A stretch of DNA of 64,000 nt, taken from positions 12,676 through 76,675 of the forward strand of contig JBBDIP010000049.1 of NCBI GenBank assembly GCA_040880305.1, read 5' to 3'. Both the position numbers and the translations under genes were made by a program. The notes beneath the pieces were generated by a model. The model did no database searches. It was not told the DNA's origin and saw only the letters and a program-made list of their open reading frames with translations. This document shows, piece after piece, positions 37,100 to 56,281 of this stretch; the stretch's first letter is position 1, and every line of letters starts with the position of its first letter. This DNA is from Bacillota bacterium (GTDB lineage: Bacteria > Bacillota > Sulfobacillia > Fermentithermobacillales > Fermentithermobacillaceae).

Positions 37100-37715
37100 G
37101 TTAGGTTCTCGCCTCCGAGGGGCAGCGCATGCAGTAAATCTTGTGCCTTTAGGTCCAGCAGGATTTCCCGCCGGCCAACCCCCGCTTCCGCGTTGGGCGG
37201 TTCCCCTTTAAGGCCGGCCTGCCGCGTCACCGTTGGCAGAGCTGGATCACCACTTAGTGCACACCGCAACCCCGCACGCGCCCGCATAAGACAGTCTAGG
37301 AGTTTTCCTCAAAGGCCCCTGTCCCTAGCCTTTTTTGCAGCCGAGCTTTCAGGAGGAACCATCCTGCCCGGCCACTCAAGACAGGCCATGTCTCTTGTTA
37401 AGGACACAACCGATAAGACGCGAATTTCTCCGGTCTTCGCGAAAAAAGGGCATACAGCCTACATGCCATTGTAGGTTTCCCTTTTTTCCTTCTCCCTAAA
37501 GAAGCCGGAAGCTGGGCGCAACCAGCCTCTTAAAGGGCGAACTCCGGTTCTGGCCCACGACGGATTTTTAGCCCCGCCTTTGGAACAGGTCAGCCCACTA
37601 GAATACTGCGCCCTCTCGGAGGAGGAACGCATCACGTATTATAGGGGATATGCTGGGCAAATGCAAATCCTGGCCTGTGCCAGCCGCTGAAACGCCAAGG
37701 CCCGGCTTACCGCTA
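37100..37715 (-). ncRNA. ole: candidate OLE (ornate, large, extremophilic) RNA; boundaries approximate
   Basis: ~620 nt without a credible ORF between ispA and the OapA-like gene. Many GC stems visible by eye. Size and synteny (xseA-xseB-ispA-[RNA]-membrane protein-dxs-nadK-argR-recN) match the described OLE locus. The consensus was not checked. Confidence 0.5.
37638..37666 (-). promoter_or_regulatory. sigma-A-like promoter element TTGCAT-N17-TATAAT
   Basis: The minus strand reads ggatTTGCATttgcccagcatatccccTATAATacg. The -10 is perfect, the -35 matches 3/6. It lies inside or at the 5' end of the OLE candidate and could be fortuitous. Confidence 0.35.
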
Positions 37716-49499: not shown

Positions 49500-49841
49500 C
49501 TAACCTAAGAGAGTTACTAGCCGGCCGAGGATCTCGGCCATCACGCTGTCGGGGAGCGAGCATACAAATTGCGCCCTTCTAGCCTGCCAGTCCAGGCTCT
49601 TCACCTGGTCAGACAACACAACGCCAACGATTGGGAGTCCATCGGGGATGGCCACCTCAAAAGGATAGCCTTTGACCAAAGACGTAATGGGACAGAAAAT
49701 CCCCAAGCCGACCTTCTTGTTGTACTGCAGCGGGGATAAGGTCACCGCTGGCCGAGTCCCCATCTGCTCGTGCCCTAGCTGGGGGTCGAAGGAAAGCCAC
49801 ACAATATCGCCTCTGGAGGGAGCATAGGCGCGCTCCATCAC
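49500..49841 (-). CDS. mazF: MazF-type endoribonuclease toxin
   Basis: Colinear by eye with E. coli MazF (GDIVWLSFDP..G.EQ.G.RPAV.LSP..YN.K.G.....P.T...KGYPFEV......DGV.L.DQVKS.DW.AR). Confidence 0.9.
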   Translation of the reverse strand: MMERAYAPSRGDIVWLSFDPQLGHEQMGTRPAVTLSPLQYNKKVGLGIFCPITSLVKGYPFEVAIPDGLPIVGVVLSDQVKSLDWQARRAQFVCSLPDSVMAEILGRLVTLLG

Positions 49842-50077
49842 CAGGTCTCCTTCCCAACGGGGCCGCCAAACTGGACCTCGCGGTGGATGTTGTCCTTGGT
49901 GACCTTGGACAGCAGTTCCTTGAGAGTAAGAGTCCTGGGGGCCTGCCGGATTACCAGCCTATCGCCGTCGATCGAGAGAGTGACTGGAGATCCGGGTCGG
50001 AGGTCCATCTCGGAAGCGAATGCATTCGGGATTCGGAGCGCCAGGCTGTTGCCCCATTTCTGAACGGTGGTTTTCAC
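49838..50077 (-). CDS. mazE: MazE antitoxin (AbrB/SpoVT fold)
   Basis: ..VQKWGNSLALRIP.. and the C-terminus ..TLKELLSKVTKDNIHREVQFGGPVGKETW parallel E. coli MazE. Start set to GTG at 50077 (GGGGGG 9 nt upstream); the track uses TTG at 50086. 4-nt overlap with mazF. Confidence 0.87.
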   Translation of the reverse strand: MKTTVQKWGNSLALRIPNAFASEMDLRPGSPVTLSIDGDRLVIRQAPRTLTLKELLSKVTKDNIHREVQFGGPVGKETW

Positions 50078-50118
50078 GAGTTCCAACCCCCCTTGCGTAT
50101 CTACAATGATTATACATG

Positions 50119-50148
50119 ACCGCGGGGGGTCGTGCGAGCCCCCGCGGT
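50119..50148 (-). terminator. hairpin after the DUF1657 gene
   Basis: ACCGCGGGGG-n10-CCCCCGCGGT (10-bp stem), 27 nt after the stop. On the minus strand it is followed by CATGTATAATCATTG, which also contains a TATAAT upstream of mazE. Confidence 0.4.
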
Positions 50149-50174
50149 GGAAGAGACGAAGTACGCTCCCTCAT

Positions 50175-50384
50175 CTACTGAGGCTGCTTGTACTGCGGCT
50201 TCTGTCCTTCAATCTCGCTCAGCCTGGACTCCAGCGAATCCGCTATGGTCTTGGTCTGTGCGGCCGCTGACTGGTAGAGCTGTTTGGCGGTCGGATTGTC
50301 GGTGTCGAGCGCGAATCCCTCCAGGGACGCGTTCGCGCTCTTCAGGCTCGCAACGCACTGCTTGACCTTCAGAGGAACGGTCAT
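50175..50384 (-). CDS. DUF1657 small protein (spore-associated family)
   Basis: Track ORF trimmed to Met11. ..VKQCVASLKSANASLEGFALDT.N..AKQLY..........I...LE.R...IE...PQYK matches my recollection of the DUF1657 pattern. Confidence 0.65.
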   Translation of the reverse strand: MTVPLKVKQCVASLKSANASLEGFALDTDNPTAKQLYQSAAAQTKTIADSLESRLSEIEGQKPQYKQPQ

Positions 50385-50703
50385 ATCGTCACCCCCGTAG
50401 AAGCGTCTGCACACTAGGCTCAGTTGATACAGGCCCTGTCCGCATCGCTGGTTCTACGGATGACCCAATCCTGACTACTGGATATACCTCACCCTTCGCT
50501 ACTGTTCAGAAAAACCACCCCAGACACGCGAGGAGCGTTTCGGCTTGGGCCCCAGCGATCGTGTCTCATGCAGGTCATGCGCTCTTCGCTCATTTCCGGT
50601 GCTTAATATTAGTGAGATATACATTTACAACATTAACTAACCTGAGAAGGAATGTCACATTGTCTGTGGAACATTCAAGGTGGAGAAAGAAGGGGTGTAT
50701 TTC

Positions 50704-51996
50704 ATGGGCGGCGATACCAGAGTAGTACACCACAACATCCGAGTGAACTTGGCCCCCGAACGAGGCACGATGGCTGCCACGGACACCATGTTCTTCGGGG
50801 GTGAGGGTACCGAACTACTGGTCTATCTCGGTAAAGGCTTCACTCTGACCGAAGCCACTCAGGGCGGTCGCAACCTGAGCATCGAAATGGTGGAGGAGCA
50901 AAGACGGGCACGTCGTTATCGGCTTTCCGGTTGGGATCCGACGAGGATGACGGCTACCCTCAAATGGGAAGGAAGAGTTGGAGAATTCGAGGTGTCGAAA
51001 GTCTGCTCCATCAGCCCACGGGTCGTTGAGTTGTCGGGTTTCGGTGCTTGGTTCCCAACCATCAAGCCGAGCTGCTATGATGAGCAGTTCACCTACCAAC
51101 TCGATGCGGATCTTCCGGAAGACTGGGCTCTGGTGATGCCAGGGATTTCGTCCCACGGCGATGTGCGGCGGCGTCACCATGACTGGCAGCGCCCCATTGA
51201 GGATATTTTCATCTGCGCGGCCCCCCATCTCAACCATCTGGAATCCGAGACGGATGGTCAAGTACTGCGGGTTTACTTTGCGGGCCTGAGTGTGGAAGTA
51301 GGTACAGCGCTAATTGATGATTATGTTCAGTCGGTTAGAATGATGGAAAAGTACTTTGGCTCCATGTTGCACGGACGAGGCGGTGTGGTGGTGATCTCAC
51401 CGCGCAGCCCTAGTGGTGACAGCTGGGGTTTTGAGCGCGGTGACCTGTGGGTAGCGGGCGATGAGTTTGTGAATGGACTAGTGAAGAGCGATTGGCAGCC
51501 GGATTACCTGCCGGGCCCGATGTCGCCGTCTTTGCATGAGTCAATCCACTCTTGGATCGGGTTGGGTCTCCAGTTCGTTCAGCCTTGGCTGGCCGAGTCC
51601 ATCACCCAGTACCTTCAGGTCGTTCTATCAGAGGAGCTGTTCTCGCAACCCGGACTAGCGGACTCATACTTTCAGTGGTATGTACCCAGGATTCGGGCCG
51701 CGCTTGTCAGAGACGACCGGGCGATTGCGAATCTAACGCTAGCTGACAATCCCTATGACCACTGGTATCTGAAGGGCAGCTGGTGTTTCTGGGACCTTGA
51801 GTCGGAGGTCGGGCGTGATGGTCTGATTTCGGCGCTTGCGGCCATCTACCGTCACCACGTAGCAGCAACTTTGGACTATGATAGCTTTGTGCGCGAGATG
51901 AGTGAACAACTATGTCGACCGCTGGACGAGCACTTCAACTACTGGTTCAAGGAGCGAGACTTTTCGCCGTTATGCCGTTCCACTCTGGAACTCTAG
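50704..51996 (+). CDS. divergent M1-like (gluzincin) metallopeptidase
   Basis: HESIHSWIG...WLAES, i.e. HExxH plus a downstream Glu with W.G and WL.E as in M1 aminopeptidases, but the spacer is X15, not X18. GFER sits where GxMEN is expected. Start set to ATG at 50704 (AGGGG 8 nt upstream); the track GTG at 50680 has no RBS. Confidence 0.55.
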   Translation: MGGDTRVVHHNIRVNLAPERGTMAATDTMFFGGEGTELLVYLGKGFTLTEATQGGRNLSIEMVEEQRRARRYRLSGWDPTRMTATLKWEGRVGEFEVSKVCSISPRVVELSGFGAWFPTIKPSCYDEQFTYQLDADLPEDWALVMPGISSHGDVRRRHHDWQRPIEDIFICAAPHLNHLESETDGQVLRVYFAGLSVEVGTALIDDYVQSVRMMEKYFGSMLHGRGGVVVISPRSPSGDSWGFERGDLWVAGDEFVNGLVKSDWQPDYLPGPMSPSLHESIHSWIGLGLQFVQPWLAESITQYLQVVLSEELFSQPGLADSYFQWYVPRIRAALVRDDRAIANLTLADNPYDHWYLKGSWCFWDLESEVGRDGLISALAAIYRHHVAATLDYDSFVREMSEQLCRPLDEHFNYWFKERDFSPLCRSTLEL

Positions 51997-52092
51997 GGCG
52001 TATCATCCTCGGCATGGACGAGGCGGTTGAGCTCAACAAAGGGGACCGCCCCGATTTCTCGTAGGCATGCAACAAGCTTTTACAACAAGCCA

Positions 52093-52116
52093 GGGGCATC
52101 TCGACCGAGATGCCCC
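52093..52116. terminator. bidirectional hairpin between convergent genes
   Basis: GGGGCATCTC-gacc-GAGATGCCCC (10-11 bp stem) between the M1-like gene (plus strand) and the zinc-ribbon gene (minus strand). Flanking T-tracts are weak. Confidence 0.5.
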
Positions 52117-52141
52117 TTACGCACTCAGTCTGCGTTCAGAC

Positions 52142-52609
52142 CTATACTGTCTTGTCTCTGCCCTTCTTGCCCTTGGGCTGCGACTTCTCTTCTTCCTCTT
52201 CGCCCTCTTCAGCGCACTCCGGACACTCGCACTCCGCTTCATCTTCGTCGTCCCAGTCGACTTCGTCGGCCGTGAACGACTCGCCACACTCGGGGCAGAC
52301 GACCTCAGTGTCAGGATCGTCCAGGACTGACGACTCGACCTCGATCAGTTCCCCGCAGTTGGGGCACTCCAGCTCCACGAAGTCCTCACCGTAGACTTCT
52401 TCCTCGACATCCGACAGGTCCTCATCTAGCGAGTCGATGTAGTCCTGCATGTCGTCCTGGGCCTCGGCCTGCTCCTCGATGGCCTGCGCCATCTCCTTGA
52501 GCACGTCACAGATCACCTTAATGGCCTTGCCTTCCTTGGTGGCCTCCGAAATGTCCAAGCCATCAACCAAACCCTGCAAATACGAGACCTTTTCTTTGAG
52601 TTGCGACAT
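52142..52609 (-). CDS. acidic zinc-ribbon protein (CD1247 N-terminal-domain-like)
   Basis: Track ORF trimmed to Met8 (MSQLKEKVSYLQGLVDGL..). CPNCG...CPECG zinc ribbon plus CECPEC, highly acidic. Conserved neighbour of efp in Clostridia, as far as I recall. Confidence 0.55.
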   Translation of the reverse strand: MSQLKEKVSYLQGLVDGLDISEATKEGKAIKVICDVLKEMAQAIEEQAEAQDDMQDYIDSLDEDLSDVEEEVYGEDFVELECPNCGELIEVESSVLDDPDTEVVCPECGESFTADEVDWDDEDEAECECPECAEEGEEEEEKSQPKGKKGRDKTV

Positions 52610-53256: not shown

Positions 53257-54336
53257 TCATTTGTCCAGGACCTTGAGTTCTTTCGGGCTGTGAGACAGGA
53301 TCCTGCTGCCCGTTTCTGTCACCAGGACAATATCCTCGATCCGGCAGCCGCCAAAGCCCGGGATGTAGATCCCCGGCTCGACAGTCACGATCATGCCCGG
53401 TGCCAGGACGTTATCAGACTTCTTACCGGCGCTTGGCCCTTCATGGACGTTCAACCCAACGCCGTGCCCAATGCCATGCCCAAAATACTGGCCGTACCCG
53501 GCGGCGTCGATGACCTTGCGGCCCGCCGCGTCGACGTCCATGCCCTTCACGCCCGGCTTCACCGCCTCGAGACCTGCGAGTTGGGCTTCCAGAACCACGT
53601 TGTAGATCTCCTCGTGCTTCTTGTCCAAGCGCCCGACGACGAAGGTCCTGGTCTCGTCCGAGCAGTAACCCTGGCACCGCGCGCCAAAGTCGAACGTGAG
53701 GAAGTCGCGGTCGGCGACCTTCCTTTCGCTGGGAACCCCGTGTGGGAGTGACGACCTCTCGCCGCTCACCGCGATAATCGGAAACGCGAGTCCCTCAGAC
53801 CCCATCCTTCGCATCGTGAACTCGAACTCGAGGGCGAGGTCGATCTCCCGTGACCCCAGACGAATAGAGTTGGTCAGCAGCGCAAACGCGTCGTCGGCGA
53901 TATCCTGGGCCTTCTGTATGAACTGGACTTCCTGCGGGGTCTTGACCATTCTCAGTTCCTCAACCCAAAGCGAGACTCCGACCAGTTCAACCCCCTCGAA
54001 ACGCTCCTTCAGCTTTTCCCAGGCCGAGTAGGTGACGTGCTCCTTCTCGAACGCGAGCCTCTTCAGGCCCTCACGCTGGACTGTGGTTTTGATCTCGTCG
54101 GTCTCGACCTTGGTCATGACGGCGGAGAAACCCACGGCCTCTTCCTGGGCTTCCTCTATGTAACGCGAGTCGGTGAAGAGGTATGCGGACTTGTCGGTTA
54201 TGAGGAGGGCACCAGCATCCCCGCGAAAGCCTGTTATGTAGCGCCAGTTCAAAAACGTGGTCACCAACAAACCGTCGACAGACTCCTGGGCCATCTTCTC
54301 CCTAAGCTTGTCTACCCTGACATTGGGAGCGCTCAA
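53257..54336 (-). CDS. Xaa-Pro aminopeptidase/dipeptidase (M24B)
   Basis: Creatinase-like N-domain. Metal ligands in ..FDFGA...GYCSD.. and HGIGHGVGLNVHE, ..VEPGIY.. TTG start with GGAGG at 7-nt spacing. Confidence 0.88.
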   Translation of the reverse strand: MSAPNVRVDKLREKMAQESVDGLLVTTFLNWRYITGFRGDAGALLITDKSAYLFTDSRYIEEAQEEAVGFSAVMTKVETDEIKTTVQREGLKRLAFEKEHVTYSAWEKLKERFEGVELVGVSLWVEELRMVKTPQEVQFIQKAQDIADDAFALLTNSIRLGSREIDLALEFEFTMRRMGSEGLAFPIIAVSGERSSLPHGVPSERKVADRDFLTFDFGARCQGYCSDETRTFVVGRLDKKHEEIYNVVLEAQLAGLEAVKPGVKGMDVDAAGRKVIDAAGYGQYFGHGIGHGVGLNVHEGPSAGKKSDNVLAPGMIVTVEPGIYIPGFGGCRIEDIVLVTETGSRILSHSPKELKVLDK

Positions 54337-54370
54337 AGCATCGCCTCCAACCTCTGGAATTCACTTGCCA

Positions 54371-54379
54371 ATTCTATCA
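54371..54379 (-). promoter_or_regulatory. possible extended -10 promoter (TGaTAGAAT) for the pepP-efp unit
   Basis: The minus strand reads ctgTGaTAGAATtgg, ~35 nt upstream of the TTG start. No convincing -35. Confidence 0.3.
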
Positions 54380-54455
54380 CAGCCCGTAGTTCGCCTGCAC
54401 CTTGATCGCCGGCAGCAGACAACCTCTTCGGGAGGCACAGCACCGCCGGATGCAA

Positions 54456-54774
54456 CCCCGATGATGCTCTCAGCATCACCCTCGAGGCGGAGGTGCTGCT
54501 GAGAACAGCAGCTTTCCAGCCGACCTGATGCTCACAGCATCACCTTCGACCCGACCGAGGCAGCCGCCGACCCCGATGATGCTCTCAGCATCACCCTCGA
54601 GGCGGAGGTGCTGCTGAAAGCAGCAGCCTTCCAGCCGACCTGATGCTCAAAGCATCACCTTCGACCCGACCGAGGCAGCCGCCGAGCCCGATGCTGCTCT
54701 AAGCATCACCCTCGAGGCGGAGGTGCTGCTGAAAGCAGCAGCCTTCCGCACGACCTGATGCTCAAAGCATCACC
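54456..54774. repeat. 2.8 tandem copies of a 115-bp unit, each with three short hairpins
   Basis: Units 54456-54570, 54571-54685 and 54686-54774 (truncated). Each contains TGATGCT-ctc-AGCATCA, GCTGCTG-agaa/aaag-CAGCAGC and TGATGCT-cac/caa-AGCATCA. Copies 1 and 2 differ at 4 of 115 positions. Confidence 0.88.
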
Positions 54775-54878
54775 CGAGATAGTCTCCAAGCAATAAGGAG
54801 CCCGGGTCCGGACCGCCTTGAGGCGCGGCGCGGAAACCCGGGCCAGCAATTCAGACTCTCAAGCGCCTGTGGCACCTC

Positions 54879-55022
54879 TCTCAGCGATGCTCTCAGCGAT
54901 GCTCTCAGCGATGCTCTCAGCGATGCTCTCAGCGCTGTTCTCAGCGATGCTCTCAGCGCTGTTCTCTGCGCTGCTCTTGGTGCTGCTCTCAGTGCTGCTA
55001 TTAGCGCCGCTATTACTCGTAG
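54879..55022. repeat. twelve tandem 12-bp repeats (tctcagcgatgc and variants) abutting the glyA stop codon
   Basis: Four perfect copies from 54879, then progressively degenerate ones (tctcagcgctgt, tctctgcgctgc, tcttggtgctgc, tctcagtgctgc, tattagcgccgc, tattactcgtag). The last copy overlaps the final glyA codons. Confidence 0.9.
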
Positions 55023-56281
55023 AACGGGTGCTTAGCGGTGAGTTCCTTGACTTCGGCAGCCACCTTGGCCTGCTCTGCCTCATCCGAGACGTTGGAGAGG
55101 CAGCGGTTGATGAGGGAGGCGATGACTTTCATGTCGCCCTCCTTCATCCCCCTGGTGGTCACGGCGGGAGTGCCGATGCGGATGCCGCTGGTCACCATGG
55201 GCTTCTTGGTGTCGAACGGGATGCCGTTCTTGTTCACCGTGATGCCGACCTTGTCCAGGGCGACTTCGGCGTCGCGGCCGGTGATGTTCTTGGAGGTGAG
55301 GTCGACCAACATGAGGTGGTTGTCGGTTCCGCCCGACACCAGCCTGAAGCCGCCCTTCACCATTTCCTCGGCCAGGGCGTGGGCGTTCTTCACGATCTGA
55401 GCCTGGTACTCCTTGAACGACGGCTCCAGCGCCTCTTTGAAGGCCACCGCTTTGGCGGCGATGATGTGCATGAGAGGACCGCCCTGGATGCCGGGGAAGA
55501 TGGCCTTGTCGATGGCGTTAGCCCAGTCCTGGGTGCAGAGGATCATGCCGCCCCTGGGCCCGCGCAGCGTCTTGTGGGTAGTGGTGGTCACAAACTGGGC
55601 GTAAGGCACGGGCGATGGGTGAAGCCCGGCGGCGATTAGCCCCGCAATGTGGGCCATATCCACCATGAGCAGGGCGCCGACCTCGTCGGCTATCTCGCGG
55701 AACTTGACGAAGTCGATGACCCTGGGGTACGCGCTGGCGCCGGCGACGATCAACTTGGGCTTGCATTCATTGGCAATCCTGCGAACCTCGTCGTAGTTGA
55801 TGCGCTCGGTGTCCTTGTCCACGCCGTAGGGCACGAAGTTGAAGTACTTGCCCGATATGTTGACCGGACTGCCGTGGGTCAAATGCCCGCCGTGCGCGAG
55901 GTTCATGCCGAGCACGGTGTCGCCCGGCTTAATGGCGGCAAAGTACACGCCTGTGTTGGCCTGGGCCCCGGAGTGAGGCTGGACGTTGGCGTGCTGGGCT
56001 CCGAAGATCTGCTTGGCCCTGTCCCTCGCCAGGTTCTCGGCGATATCCACGACCTCGCAACCGCCGTAGTAGCGGTGCGCGGGATACCCTTCGGCATACT
56101 TGTTGGTCAAAACTGAGCCCATGGCCTCGAGCACGGCCTTGGACACCAAGTTCTCTGAAGCAATGAGCTCGATGACGCTCATCTGGCGCGCCTTTTCGTC
56201 AAGGATCGTCTTGAAGATGTCGGGGTCAGACTGCGAGAGAGGTTTGGTCGTCATACCCACGTTGTGTTCCCTACCTTTCAT
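55013..56281 (-). CDS. glyA: serine hydroxymethyltransferase
   Basis: ..[32 protein letters not shown].., PLP-Lys motif [14 protein letters not shown]. The start may instead be Met10 at 56254. Confidence 0.93.

Follow-up and report, generated by a model that had tools for sequence, protein, structure and literature searches.

A strain-variable tandem array of hairpin-forming palindromes between glyA and pepP in an uncultured Bacillota species

The stretch of DNA analyzed here (the window: 64,000 nucleotides of contig JBBDIP010000049.1, positions 12,676 to 76,675, assembly GCA_040880305.1, from a Bacillota bacterium of the Fermentithermobacillaceae) carries, between the glyA and pepP genes, a tandem array of 115-bp units built from perfect palindromes. 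Our analysis indicates that this array is most likely an unstable local repeat, and neither a regulatory RNA of a new kind nor a member of a dispersed family of the REP (repetitive extragenic palindrome) type. The reading that we favor, with a probability of about 0.55, is that of a species-restricted, strain-variable hairpin minisatellite, or variable-number tandem repeat (VNTR), born locally in the gap between the glyA terminator and the pepP-efp promoter.

Results

Architecture and predicted folding of the array

The array occupies positions 54456-54774 on the minus strand and comprises 2.8 units, in which three 88-nt cores (54686-54773, 54571-54658, and 54456-54543, as delimited by covariance-model hits and unit comparison) are joined by two 27-nt linkers (54659-54685 and 54544-54570, by unit comparison). 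Tandem Repeats Finder (TRF) reports it at 54455-54774, with a period of 115, 2.8 copies, 95% matches, and no indels. The units start at 54456, 54571, and 54686, the third being 89 nt long, and each contains three hairpins with 7-bp stems, exactly as an earlier, sequence-only reading of the window had described on the basis of the letters alone; TRF, unit comparison, and pattern counts all agree on this. Between copies 1 and 2, exactly 4 of 115 positions are different: offsets 47 and 49, both in the hairpin 2 loop; offset 57, immediately 3' of the hairpin 2 stem; and offset 79, in the hairpin 3 loop. This reproduces the earlier tally of three loop differences and one beside a stem. A covariance model of the core (R1) scores 111-117 bits at exactly the three array cores. 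All six frames of the array are closed by stop codons, as the same reading had said of open reading frames (ORFs) here, and a coding repeat is thereby ruled out.

The array is built as a higher-order repeat, with TRF periods of 31 and 51 nested inside the period of 115. Its 32-nt sub-repeat combines a perfect palindrome of 17 bp with a G-rich spacer of 15 nt. The core of 88-89 nt comprises three of these sub-repeats, A', B, and A, and the core plus the 27-nt linker makes up the 115-bp unit. On the minus strand, A' reads GTGATGCT-N3-AGCATCA followed by GGTCGGCTGGAAG; B reads GCTGCTG-N4-CAGCAGC (alternatively TGCTGCT-N3-AGCAGCA), followed in the N4 reading by the spacer ACCTCCGCCTCGAGGG; and A reads TGATGCT-N3-AGCATCA followed by TCGGGG. 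Because the genes around the array are on the minus strand, hairpin 1 of the sequence-only reading is in fact the last one in the direction of transcription. With the palindromes in the N3 register, their centers are spaced by 32, 32, and 51 bp within the 115-bp unit. A further palindrome, CCTCGAGG, is found in each of the three window copies.

By pattern search, type A palindromes (TGATGCT-N3-AGCATCA, hairpin 1 of the sequence-only reading) are located at 54462-54478 and 54577-54593, with a variant in a shifted register at 54692-54708. Type B palindromes (GCTGCTG-N4-CAGCAGC) are at 54495-54512, 54610-54627, and 54725-54742, the last two of which, in copies 2 and 3, can alternatively be read as TGCTGCT-N3-AGCAGCA, and type A' palindromes (TGATGCT-N3-AGCATCA, its hairpin 3) are at 54526-54542, 54641-54657, and 54756-54772. 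Every match in the 64-kb window lies within the array, both for GATGCTNNNAGCATC with at most one mismatch (6 matches, 0.18 expected) and for GCTGCTGNNNNCAGCAGC (3 matches, 0.03 expected). B differs from A by a single compensatory pair, A-T to C-G, and a one-sided intermediate, in which AGCAGCA stands opposite TGATGCT, is present in the promoter-distal copy of the window and in strain L006.

Individually, the palindromes are predicted to fold at -11.8 kcal/mol as RNA and -6.0 as DNA for type A, and, as RNA, at -11.5 kcal/mol for type B and -7.6 kcal/mol for type A'. The first hairpin of copy 3 carries a T>G change and refolds as GATGCT-N6-AGCATC, with its register shifted by 3 nt, at -7.5 kcal/mol (RNA); the earlier observation that it keeps a GATGCT/AGCATC stem is therefore borne out. 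The 88- to 89-nt core is far more stable as a single long hairpin, with B at the tip of a stem formed by A' and A, than as three small hairpins (-50.9 versus -26.5 kcal/mol), and RNAalifold picks the same long fold. Both termini of the core carry the same palindrome, GGTGATGCT-N3-AGCATCA, so that terminal inverted repeats are present. When compared with shuffles, the array folds with z = -6.3 and -6.5 on the two strands, and its stems are preferentially preserved, in agreement with the proposal that it is a structured, noncoding element. With z-scores so similar, neither strand carries a signal of its own. No T-run follows any of the nine array hairpins on either strand and, lacking a U-run, they are not intrinsic terminators. 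Covariation is limited to one compensatory pair, between paralogous sub-repeats, which 44 of 500 shuffles reach, and the RNAalifold consensus fold contains no compensatory pairs. This shows that the structure is supported by the invariance of the stems, not by covariation.

Copy number differs among strains

Conspecific contigs were recovered from several samples by exact PepP and Efp sequence, and five complete conspecific spacers were compared, those of the window and of L006, L008, L015, and L018. All sequences are short-read metagenome assemblies, which leaves the exact copy numbers uncertain. The flanking genes are 98.5-99.6% identical to those of the window. L008, L015, and L018 each have a single core of 88-89 nt, with no 115-bp periodicity; the window has three cores in 318 nt; and L006 has three cores plus an extra A hairpin with its linker, in 369 nt (51 + 2 x 115 + 88). 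The array lengths of 88, 88, 88, 318, and 369 nt thus correspond to 88 + n x 115, plus 51 in L006. The strain comparison that the sequence-only reading had recommended does therefore reveal variation, from one to three cores and a 51-bp piece, and the number of palindrome sites ranges from 3 to 10. Both defining features of a VNTR or minisatellite are found: the units, longer than 10 bp, are arranged head to tail, and their number is polymorphic among strains. Four additional Logan contigs (L007, L009, L017, and L020) have ends that fall inside the array, as is usual for repeats, and L007, which comes from a different assembler, matches the promoter-proximal unit of L006 exactly.

A second tandem repeat lies directly after the glyA stop codon. 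This 12-bp array (54878-55011, minus strand), in which the unit is GCTGAGAGCATC on the minus strand, has about 10 copies (TRF period 12, 9.6 copies), and its unit is the central 12 nt of palindrome A. Its length varies as well: the 12-mer region is 130, 94, 93, 81, or 45 nt long, in steps of 12 apart from one 1-nt indel. This indel divides the two multi-unit strains from the three single-core strains. Since the two splits match, the expansion or contraction of the cores was probably a single event, to which later changes were added. A coding reading of an ORF that runs through the 12-mer array (54859-55083, minus strand) was rejected because the same indel shifts its frame in three sister strains.

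Variation falls in the loops

Variation was counted over nine units from the five strains. The fraction of variable columns is 1/42 in stems, 6/10 in loops, and 11/63 in spacers, and both contrasts are significant in Fisher tests (stems versus the rest, p=0.003; loops versus spacers, p=0.008). Among the three single-core strains, 3/3 differences are in the 10 loop positions of the 88-nt core. That differences are confined to loops while the flanking genes of these strains are each 98.5-99.7% identical to those of the window shows that the loops evolve much faster than the background, and the stems more slowly. No template-switch footprint of the loop-inversion kind was found, the loop variants not being simple reverse complements of one another.

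In unit 3 of L006, a stretch of 17 nt has six changes (GCCTCGAGGGTGATGCTGAG to GCTCCGAAGTTGATGCTCTG), and the CCTCGAGG palindrome is lost as a result. This cluster looks like a multi-nucleotide event, for which no donor was identified.

The element is known from a single locus

Within the 64-kb window and some 57 kb of loci from relatives, pattern search, blastn, and covariance model R1 all failed to reveal a second copy of the core. R1 found no diverged copies beyond the three array cores, its next best match having E=0.67. The GTDB species representatives contain no copy, but only five single 24-nt chance matches in unrelated taxa, with no similarity outside the pattern, and none was found in JGI metagenomes, IMG/VR, PLSDB (plasmids), or INPHARED (phages). 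On these scans, a dispersed family in other organisms was rejected; within this species, dispersal was not found in the data scanned, the genome beyond the window and the recovered loci being outside the scans. The array has no counterpart among known RNA families either. An Rfam scan of the window at gathering thresholds returned nothing there, and the best match of a permissive scan of 54250-55100 reached 22.7 bits against a threshold of 60, at the level of miRNA-like hairpin noise; these two scans rule out a known RNA family. With no Rfam, plasmid, or phage match, we can only concur with the sequence-only reading, which did not recognize the family. Its description of the element as REP-like holds for the form but not for dispersal, the array being a single locus in all the data scanned. 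Of the three kinds of findings named at the time as speaking against such an element, two, uniqueness and absence from relatives, are indeed what we observe, as far as the window, relatives' loci, and databases were searched.

Relatives at 62-82% PepP identity, in which the gene order is the same, do not have the element. In L012/L013 (PepP 73%) and L042/L043 (76%), the spacers of 112-129 bp contain only a terminator and a promoter, and those of L022 (63%) and L023 (62%) are short too, the shortest being about 25 bp. In L011 (GCA_041890195.1, PepP 82%), glyA and pepP are separated by an inserted gene on the opposite strand that encodes 294 aa and matches nothing in Pfam (L011 238-1122). L010 (GCA_964602455.1, PepP 80%) has in the same spacer an unrelated series of about five GTGGCGGG...CCCGCCAC hairpins (L010 3640-3800), two of which are perfect and 32 bp apart, and the first two of which are followed by T-runs; nearer the promoter, it also has a 14-bp direct repeat, TAGGATGCCAGGCTA, in 2.9 copies. 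The glyA-pepP spacer is thus a recurrent insertion site, and it seems prone to independent gain of hairpin repeats. The absence of the element from these relatives indicates that it is recent and dispensable. A JGI protein search for orthologous loci returned a closest match of 78% with just 22 bp of upstream sequence, the rest being too distant. On inspection, no clear direct repeat that might represent a target-site duplication flanks the single core in L008, L015, and L018.

The array lies between a terminator and a promoter

The genes around the array are on the minus strand. A cluster composed of gcvT-H-P1-P2, an unknown gene, a radical-SAM gene, lplA, lpdA, and glyA (an order read from called genes on a sister contig) reads toward pepP, downstream of which are efp, a zinc-ribbon gene, and the spoIIIA operon. 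The last gene of the cluster, glyA, encodes a serine hydroxymethyltransferase (55013-56281, minus strand; Pfam SHMT 1.1e-174) and lies upstream of the array, while pepP, downstream of it, encodes an Xaa-Pro aminopeptidase of the M24 family (53257-54336, minus strand; Pfam Peptidase_M24 2e-70, Creatinase_N 2.4e-27). The 676-bp spacer between them contains, in the direction of transcription, the glyA stop codon, the 12-bp array, a terminator hairpin, the 115-bp array, about 75 bp of unique sequence, and the pepP promoter.

The terminator-like hairpin, GGCCCGGG...CCCGGGC with the T-rich tail TCCTTATTGCTT (about 54788-54844, minus strand), was identified by a terminator scan and folds at -33.8 kcal/mol. 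It lies between the 12-mer array and the 115-bp array and is the only terminator-like site that the scan returned (about 54799-54844). Hairpins are also present after glyA in relatives without the repeats, of the form GCCCGGG...CCCGGGC in L011 and L012 and of another G+C-rich sequence in L042/L043. The position of this conserved terminator upstream of the array implies that most glyA transcripts should end before reaching it. On the other side of the array, an extended -10 element of a pepP-efp promoter, TGaTAGAAT (54371-54379, minus strand), can be read from the sequence, followed by a short leader, a GGAGG Shine-Dalgarno sequence, and the TTG start codon of pepP. The motif TGnTAGAAT followed by TGGCA(A/G)GTGAATTC is kept in L010, L011, L022, and L042, whereas L043 has the variant TGATACAAT and L012 retains just the TGGTAGAAT box. 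This conservation in relatives strengthens what had been put forward as a possible promoter, which a consensus promoter scan missed because of its poor -35 element. The nearest palindrome center is about 100 bp upstream of the -10 element. With a terminator before it and a conserved promoter after it, the array lies past the normal end of the glyA transcript and ahead of the pepP-efp promoter.

The array also shares sequence with the beginning of pepP. Taken together, the linker end and the left half of A' (GGTCGAAGGTGATGCTTTGAGC) agree at 19 of 22 positions with the region of the pepP Shine-Dalgarno sequence and TTG start codon, GGTTGGAGGCGATGCTTTGAGC (54331-54352, minus strand, by local alignment). 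The alignment score of 29 was reached in 0 of 1000 shuffles and is the best among 5050 window segments, the runner-up scoring 28. Relatives without the repeats already have GGAGGCGAT..TGTGAGCG at the position of the pepP start, their start codon being GTG in L010, L011, L012, and L021, instead of TTG as in the window. This likeness, which may reflect either the seed of the repeat or gene conversion, suggests without establishing it that the repeat may have been seeded from the pepP start region. No significant likeness was seen to the flank downstream of the array: aligned with it, the 27-nt linker and the L006 variant unit score 14, a value that 550-691 of 1000-2000 shuffles also attain.

Other features of the window

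Two observations concern other parts of the window. The only Rfam match at gathering threshold is a full-length OLE (ornate large extremophilic) RNA (RF01071) at 37103-37630 on the minus strand (306.5 bits, E=2.7e-86). The OLE RNA and the spoIIIA operon place the organism among spore-forming Bacillota. Furthermore, spoIIIAA and the zinc-ribbon gene that follows efp are separated in the window by a segment of about 2.6 kb (window ~49503-52150), which L019 shares at 100% identity, while all seven other conspecific loci reaching there (L006, L007, L008, L009, L015, L017, and L018) have about 68 bp instead. The segment contains an ORF of 438 aa (50680-51996, plus strand) with a weak match to Peptidase_M1 (E=6.8e-5) that is below the cut-off.

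Discussion

The nested periods of 31, 51, and 115 and the 12-mer that the neighboring array has in common with palindrome A point to local amplification of one seed. We classify the element as a bacterial intergenic minisatellite built from palindromes, without sequence relatives. It would have originated locally, between the glyA terminator and the pepP-efp promoter, where transcription would be weak or absent. Gain or loss is seen at three scales, that of whole units (115 bp), of sub-units (51 bp), and of 12-mers in the neighboring array, and probably proceeds by slipped-strand mispairing or unequal recombination. In single-stranded DNA, the palindromes would extrude as hairpins or cruciforms, in which intrastrand template switching would correct the arms while the exposed loop bases would mutate faster. 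Template switching is known to make perfect inverted repeats and to maintain their perfection (PMC8794818, PMC5941160), and the combination of perfect arms and fast loops matches its known outcome in extruded hairpins. Selection for the hairpin is a possible additional cause of the perfect arms. The array probably has no dedicated sequence-specific function, and any effect on its neighbors would be passive at most. By separating the pepP-efp promoter from a strongly expressed operon upstream with 90-370 bp of DNA prone to form structures, it could take up supercoiling or hold back polymerases that read through. The evidence allows at most a passive effect of this kind, as a spacer or insulator, such as has been proposed for BIMEs (bacterial interspersed mosaic elements).

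Several points weigh against this interpretation. The same stem/loop pattern would arise from template switching and from selection, whether the latter acted on a hairpin of RNA or DNA or on a symmetric protein-binding site, and the two are indistinguishable here. All five strains have kept at least one complete core, and one core may be needed. The center spacings of 32, 32, and 51 bp correspond to about 3.0, 3.0, and 4.9 helical turns, the 51-bp step being about 1.5 bp short of five, and this near-whole-turn spacing is a weak hint of a protein array. The unrelated hairpin array in the spacer of L010 may mean that hairpins are favored at this position. Finally, it is possible that a low-copy dispersed family exists in the genome of this species beyond the scanned loci.

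How, then, do other explanations fare? An element acting at the RNA level, in which read-through glyA transcripts carry the array and its small hairpins, or the long 88-nt one, work as a REP-like 3' stabilizer or insulator by blocking 3'-5' exonucleases, by providing sites for RNase processing, or by hindering read-through into pepP-efp, is unlikely. The array is in line with glyA transcription, both of its strands fold far below shuffles (z about -6.3 to -6.5), the core fold reaches -50.9 kcal/mol, stems are preserved where loops are free to vary, and A and B differ by a compensatory pair, all of which speaks in favor of such an element. However, the strong conserved terminator hairpin precedes the array, which is consequently not at the normal 3' end of glyA, and this makes the role of mRNA 3'-end stabilizer for glyA, as suggested by the sequence-only reading, an unlikely one. 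Moreover, none of the hairpins is followed by a U-run, the two strands give similar z-scores, covariation is weak, relatives with the same gene order lack the element, and Rfam has no matching family. The other roles proposed at the time, of insulator and of binding platform, are conceivable at most. For the latter, TGATGCT-N3-AGCATCA and TGCTGCT-N3-AGCAGCA would be pairs of half-sites for a dimeric protein (a regulator, a nucleoid protein, or a gyrase-like enzyme), phased on one face of the helix upstream of pepP-efp. This would account for invariant half-sites around a free central 3 bp, for spacings that by alignment are roughly 3, 3, 5, and, for the whole 115-bp unit, 11 helical turns, and for the retention of at least one core in every strain. 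Yet the motif is nowhere else in the 64 kb, leaving no visible regulon, the nearest palindrome center is some 100 bp from the -10 element, strains have anything from 3 to 10 sites and relatives do without, no candidate regulator gene is nearby, and B alters both half-sites symmetrically, which fits pairing better than a fixed protein specificity. We consequently regard a DNA-binding platform as quite unlikely.

The 88-nt core is a long imperfect inverted repeat with identical termini (GGTGATGCT...AGCATCA) that folds into a single long hairpin, its presence in this species and absence from relatives is what an insertion predicts, and the same spacer has taken other insertions, namely the gene in L011 and the hairpin array in L010. 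These features are compatible with a nonautonomous mobile element of the MITE (miniature inverted-repeat transposable element), REPIN, or Correia type, which would have been inserted between glyA and pepP and then amplified in tandem. We nevertheless find this origin improbable, because a second copy was found in none of the data searched, a target-site duplication is not clearly visible, no transposase or RAYT gene was identified (in a window that was not systematically screened for them), and the sequence shared with the adjacent 12-mer array and the pepP start region favors a local origin. It is similarly improbable that the core is a functional, species-specific cis element, either a set of phased palindromes (cruciform or bound by dimers) that shields the pepP-efp promoter from the upstream gcv-glyA operon, or an RNA mimic that, through its likeness to the pepP ribosome-binding region (19/22), titrates a factor acting on pepP-efp translation. 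Were the cis-element reading true, in either version, the loops would be genuine hot spots of mutation, in which template-switch mutagenesis would have left a natural record. As for the tandem structure being an artifact made by the assembler from strain mixtures, the reliance on short-read metagenome assemblies throughout, a 115-bp unit that is shorter than the likely k-mer (k141 in contig names), and the breaks of Logan contigs in the array give reason for caution. But multi-unit arrays with unit-specific single-nucleotide polymorphisms occur in two independently assembled strains (the window and L006), the proximal unit of L006 was reproduced exactly in L007 by another assembler, the array is internal to long contigs, and the single core has an identical architecture in three further samples; an artifact is therefore highly improbable. 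The locally born minisatellite is thus the explanation that we retain.

As described here, the array is one more bacterial intergenic minisatellite, of little general consequence. It does, however, offer a clean natural case in which palindrome arms are invariant and loops mutate far above the strain background, as the template-switch model predicts, and a length-polymorphic marker with which strains of an uncultured Bacillota species could be typed in metagenomes. It also warns against naming a family from REP-looking repeats in one window without first counting their copies across the genome. Should one core prove to be needed for expression of pepP-efp or glyA, the array would be a small, tractable model of a hairpin-based insulator.

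Among known systems, the array invites comparison with REP sequences and BIMEs of enterobacteria and the REPINs of Pseudomonas, which are short, G+C-rich, perfect or imperfect intergenic palindromes found after the 3' ends of genes, clustered and variable in unit number, and able to form hairpins in RNA or single-stranded DNA. Roles in mRNA 3' protection, gyrase binding, and supercoiling relief have been proposed for REP/BIME sequences, and what defines REPs and REPINs is that they are dispersed, with copies numbering in the tens to hundreds, and associated with a RAYT transposase. Like them, the array consists of clustered, hairpin-forming palindromes outside genes (17-18 nt with 7-bp stems), comparable to the stem-loop unit of about 20-40 nt of REP sequences, and its core folds into one long hairpin as a REPIN doublet does. 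In contrast to them, it is known from a single locus in the data scanned, with the remaining genome of the species outside the scans, and it has no sequence similarity to them; its 115-bp units are also strictly head to tail, whereas the orientations of BIMEs alternate. With MITEs and Correia elements, it shares terminal inverted repeats, found at the ends of the core, but neither copies at multiple loci nor target-site duplications. BOX elements of Streptococcus pneumoniae are dispersed, in more than 100 copies, and have a fixed boxA-boxB(n)-boxC architecture. They resemble the array in being modular intergenic repeats of a Firmicute host, with variable internal modules and strong predicted secondary structure, but the array has no sequence similarity to them and no dispersal was seen.

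In Mycobacterium tuberculosis, MIRU-VNTRs number about 40 loci per genome; they are not known to consist of perfect palindromes, and many of them have small overlapping ORFs. Here, the likeness lies in tandem units of about 40-115 bp between co-directional genes, whose copy number varies among strains through slippage or recombination; the array differs in having stops in all frames and in being built, at a higher order, from hairpin sub-units. Lastly, inverted repeats attributed to template switching (PMC5941160, PMC8794818) likewise have arms that stay perfectly complementary over time, loops that change, and compensatory changes that can arise in one step, although those studies concern isolated inverted repeats or RNA genes and not a tandem higher-order array, for which the mechanism can only be suggested. 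In form, therefore, the array is REP/BIME/REPIN-like, while in behavior it is like a VNTR of the MIRU type.

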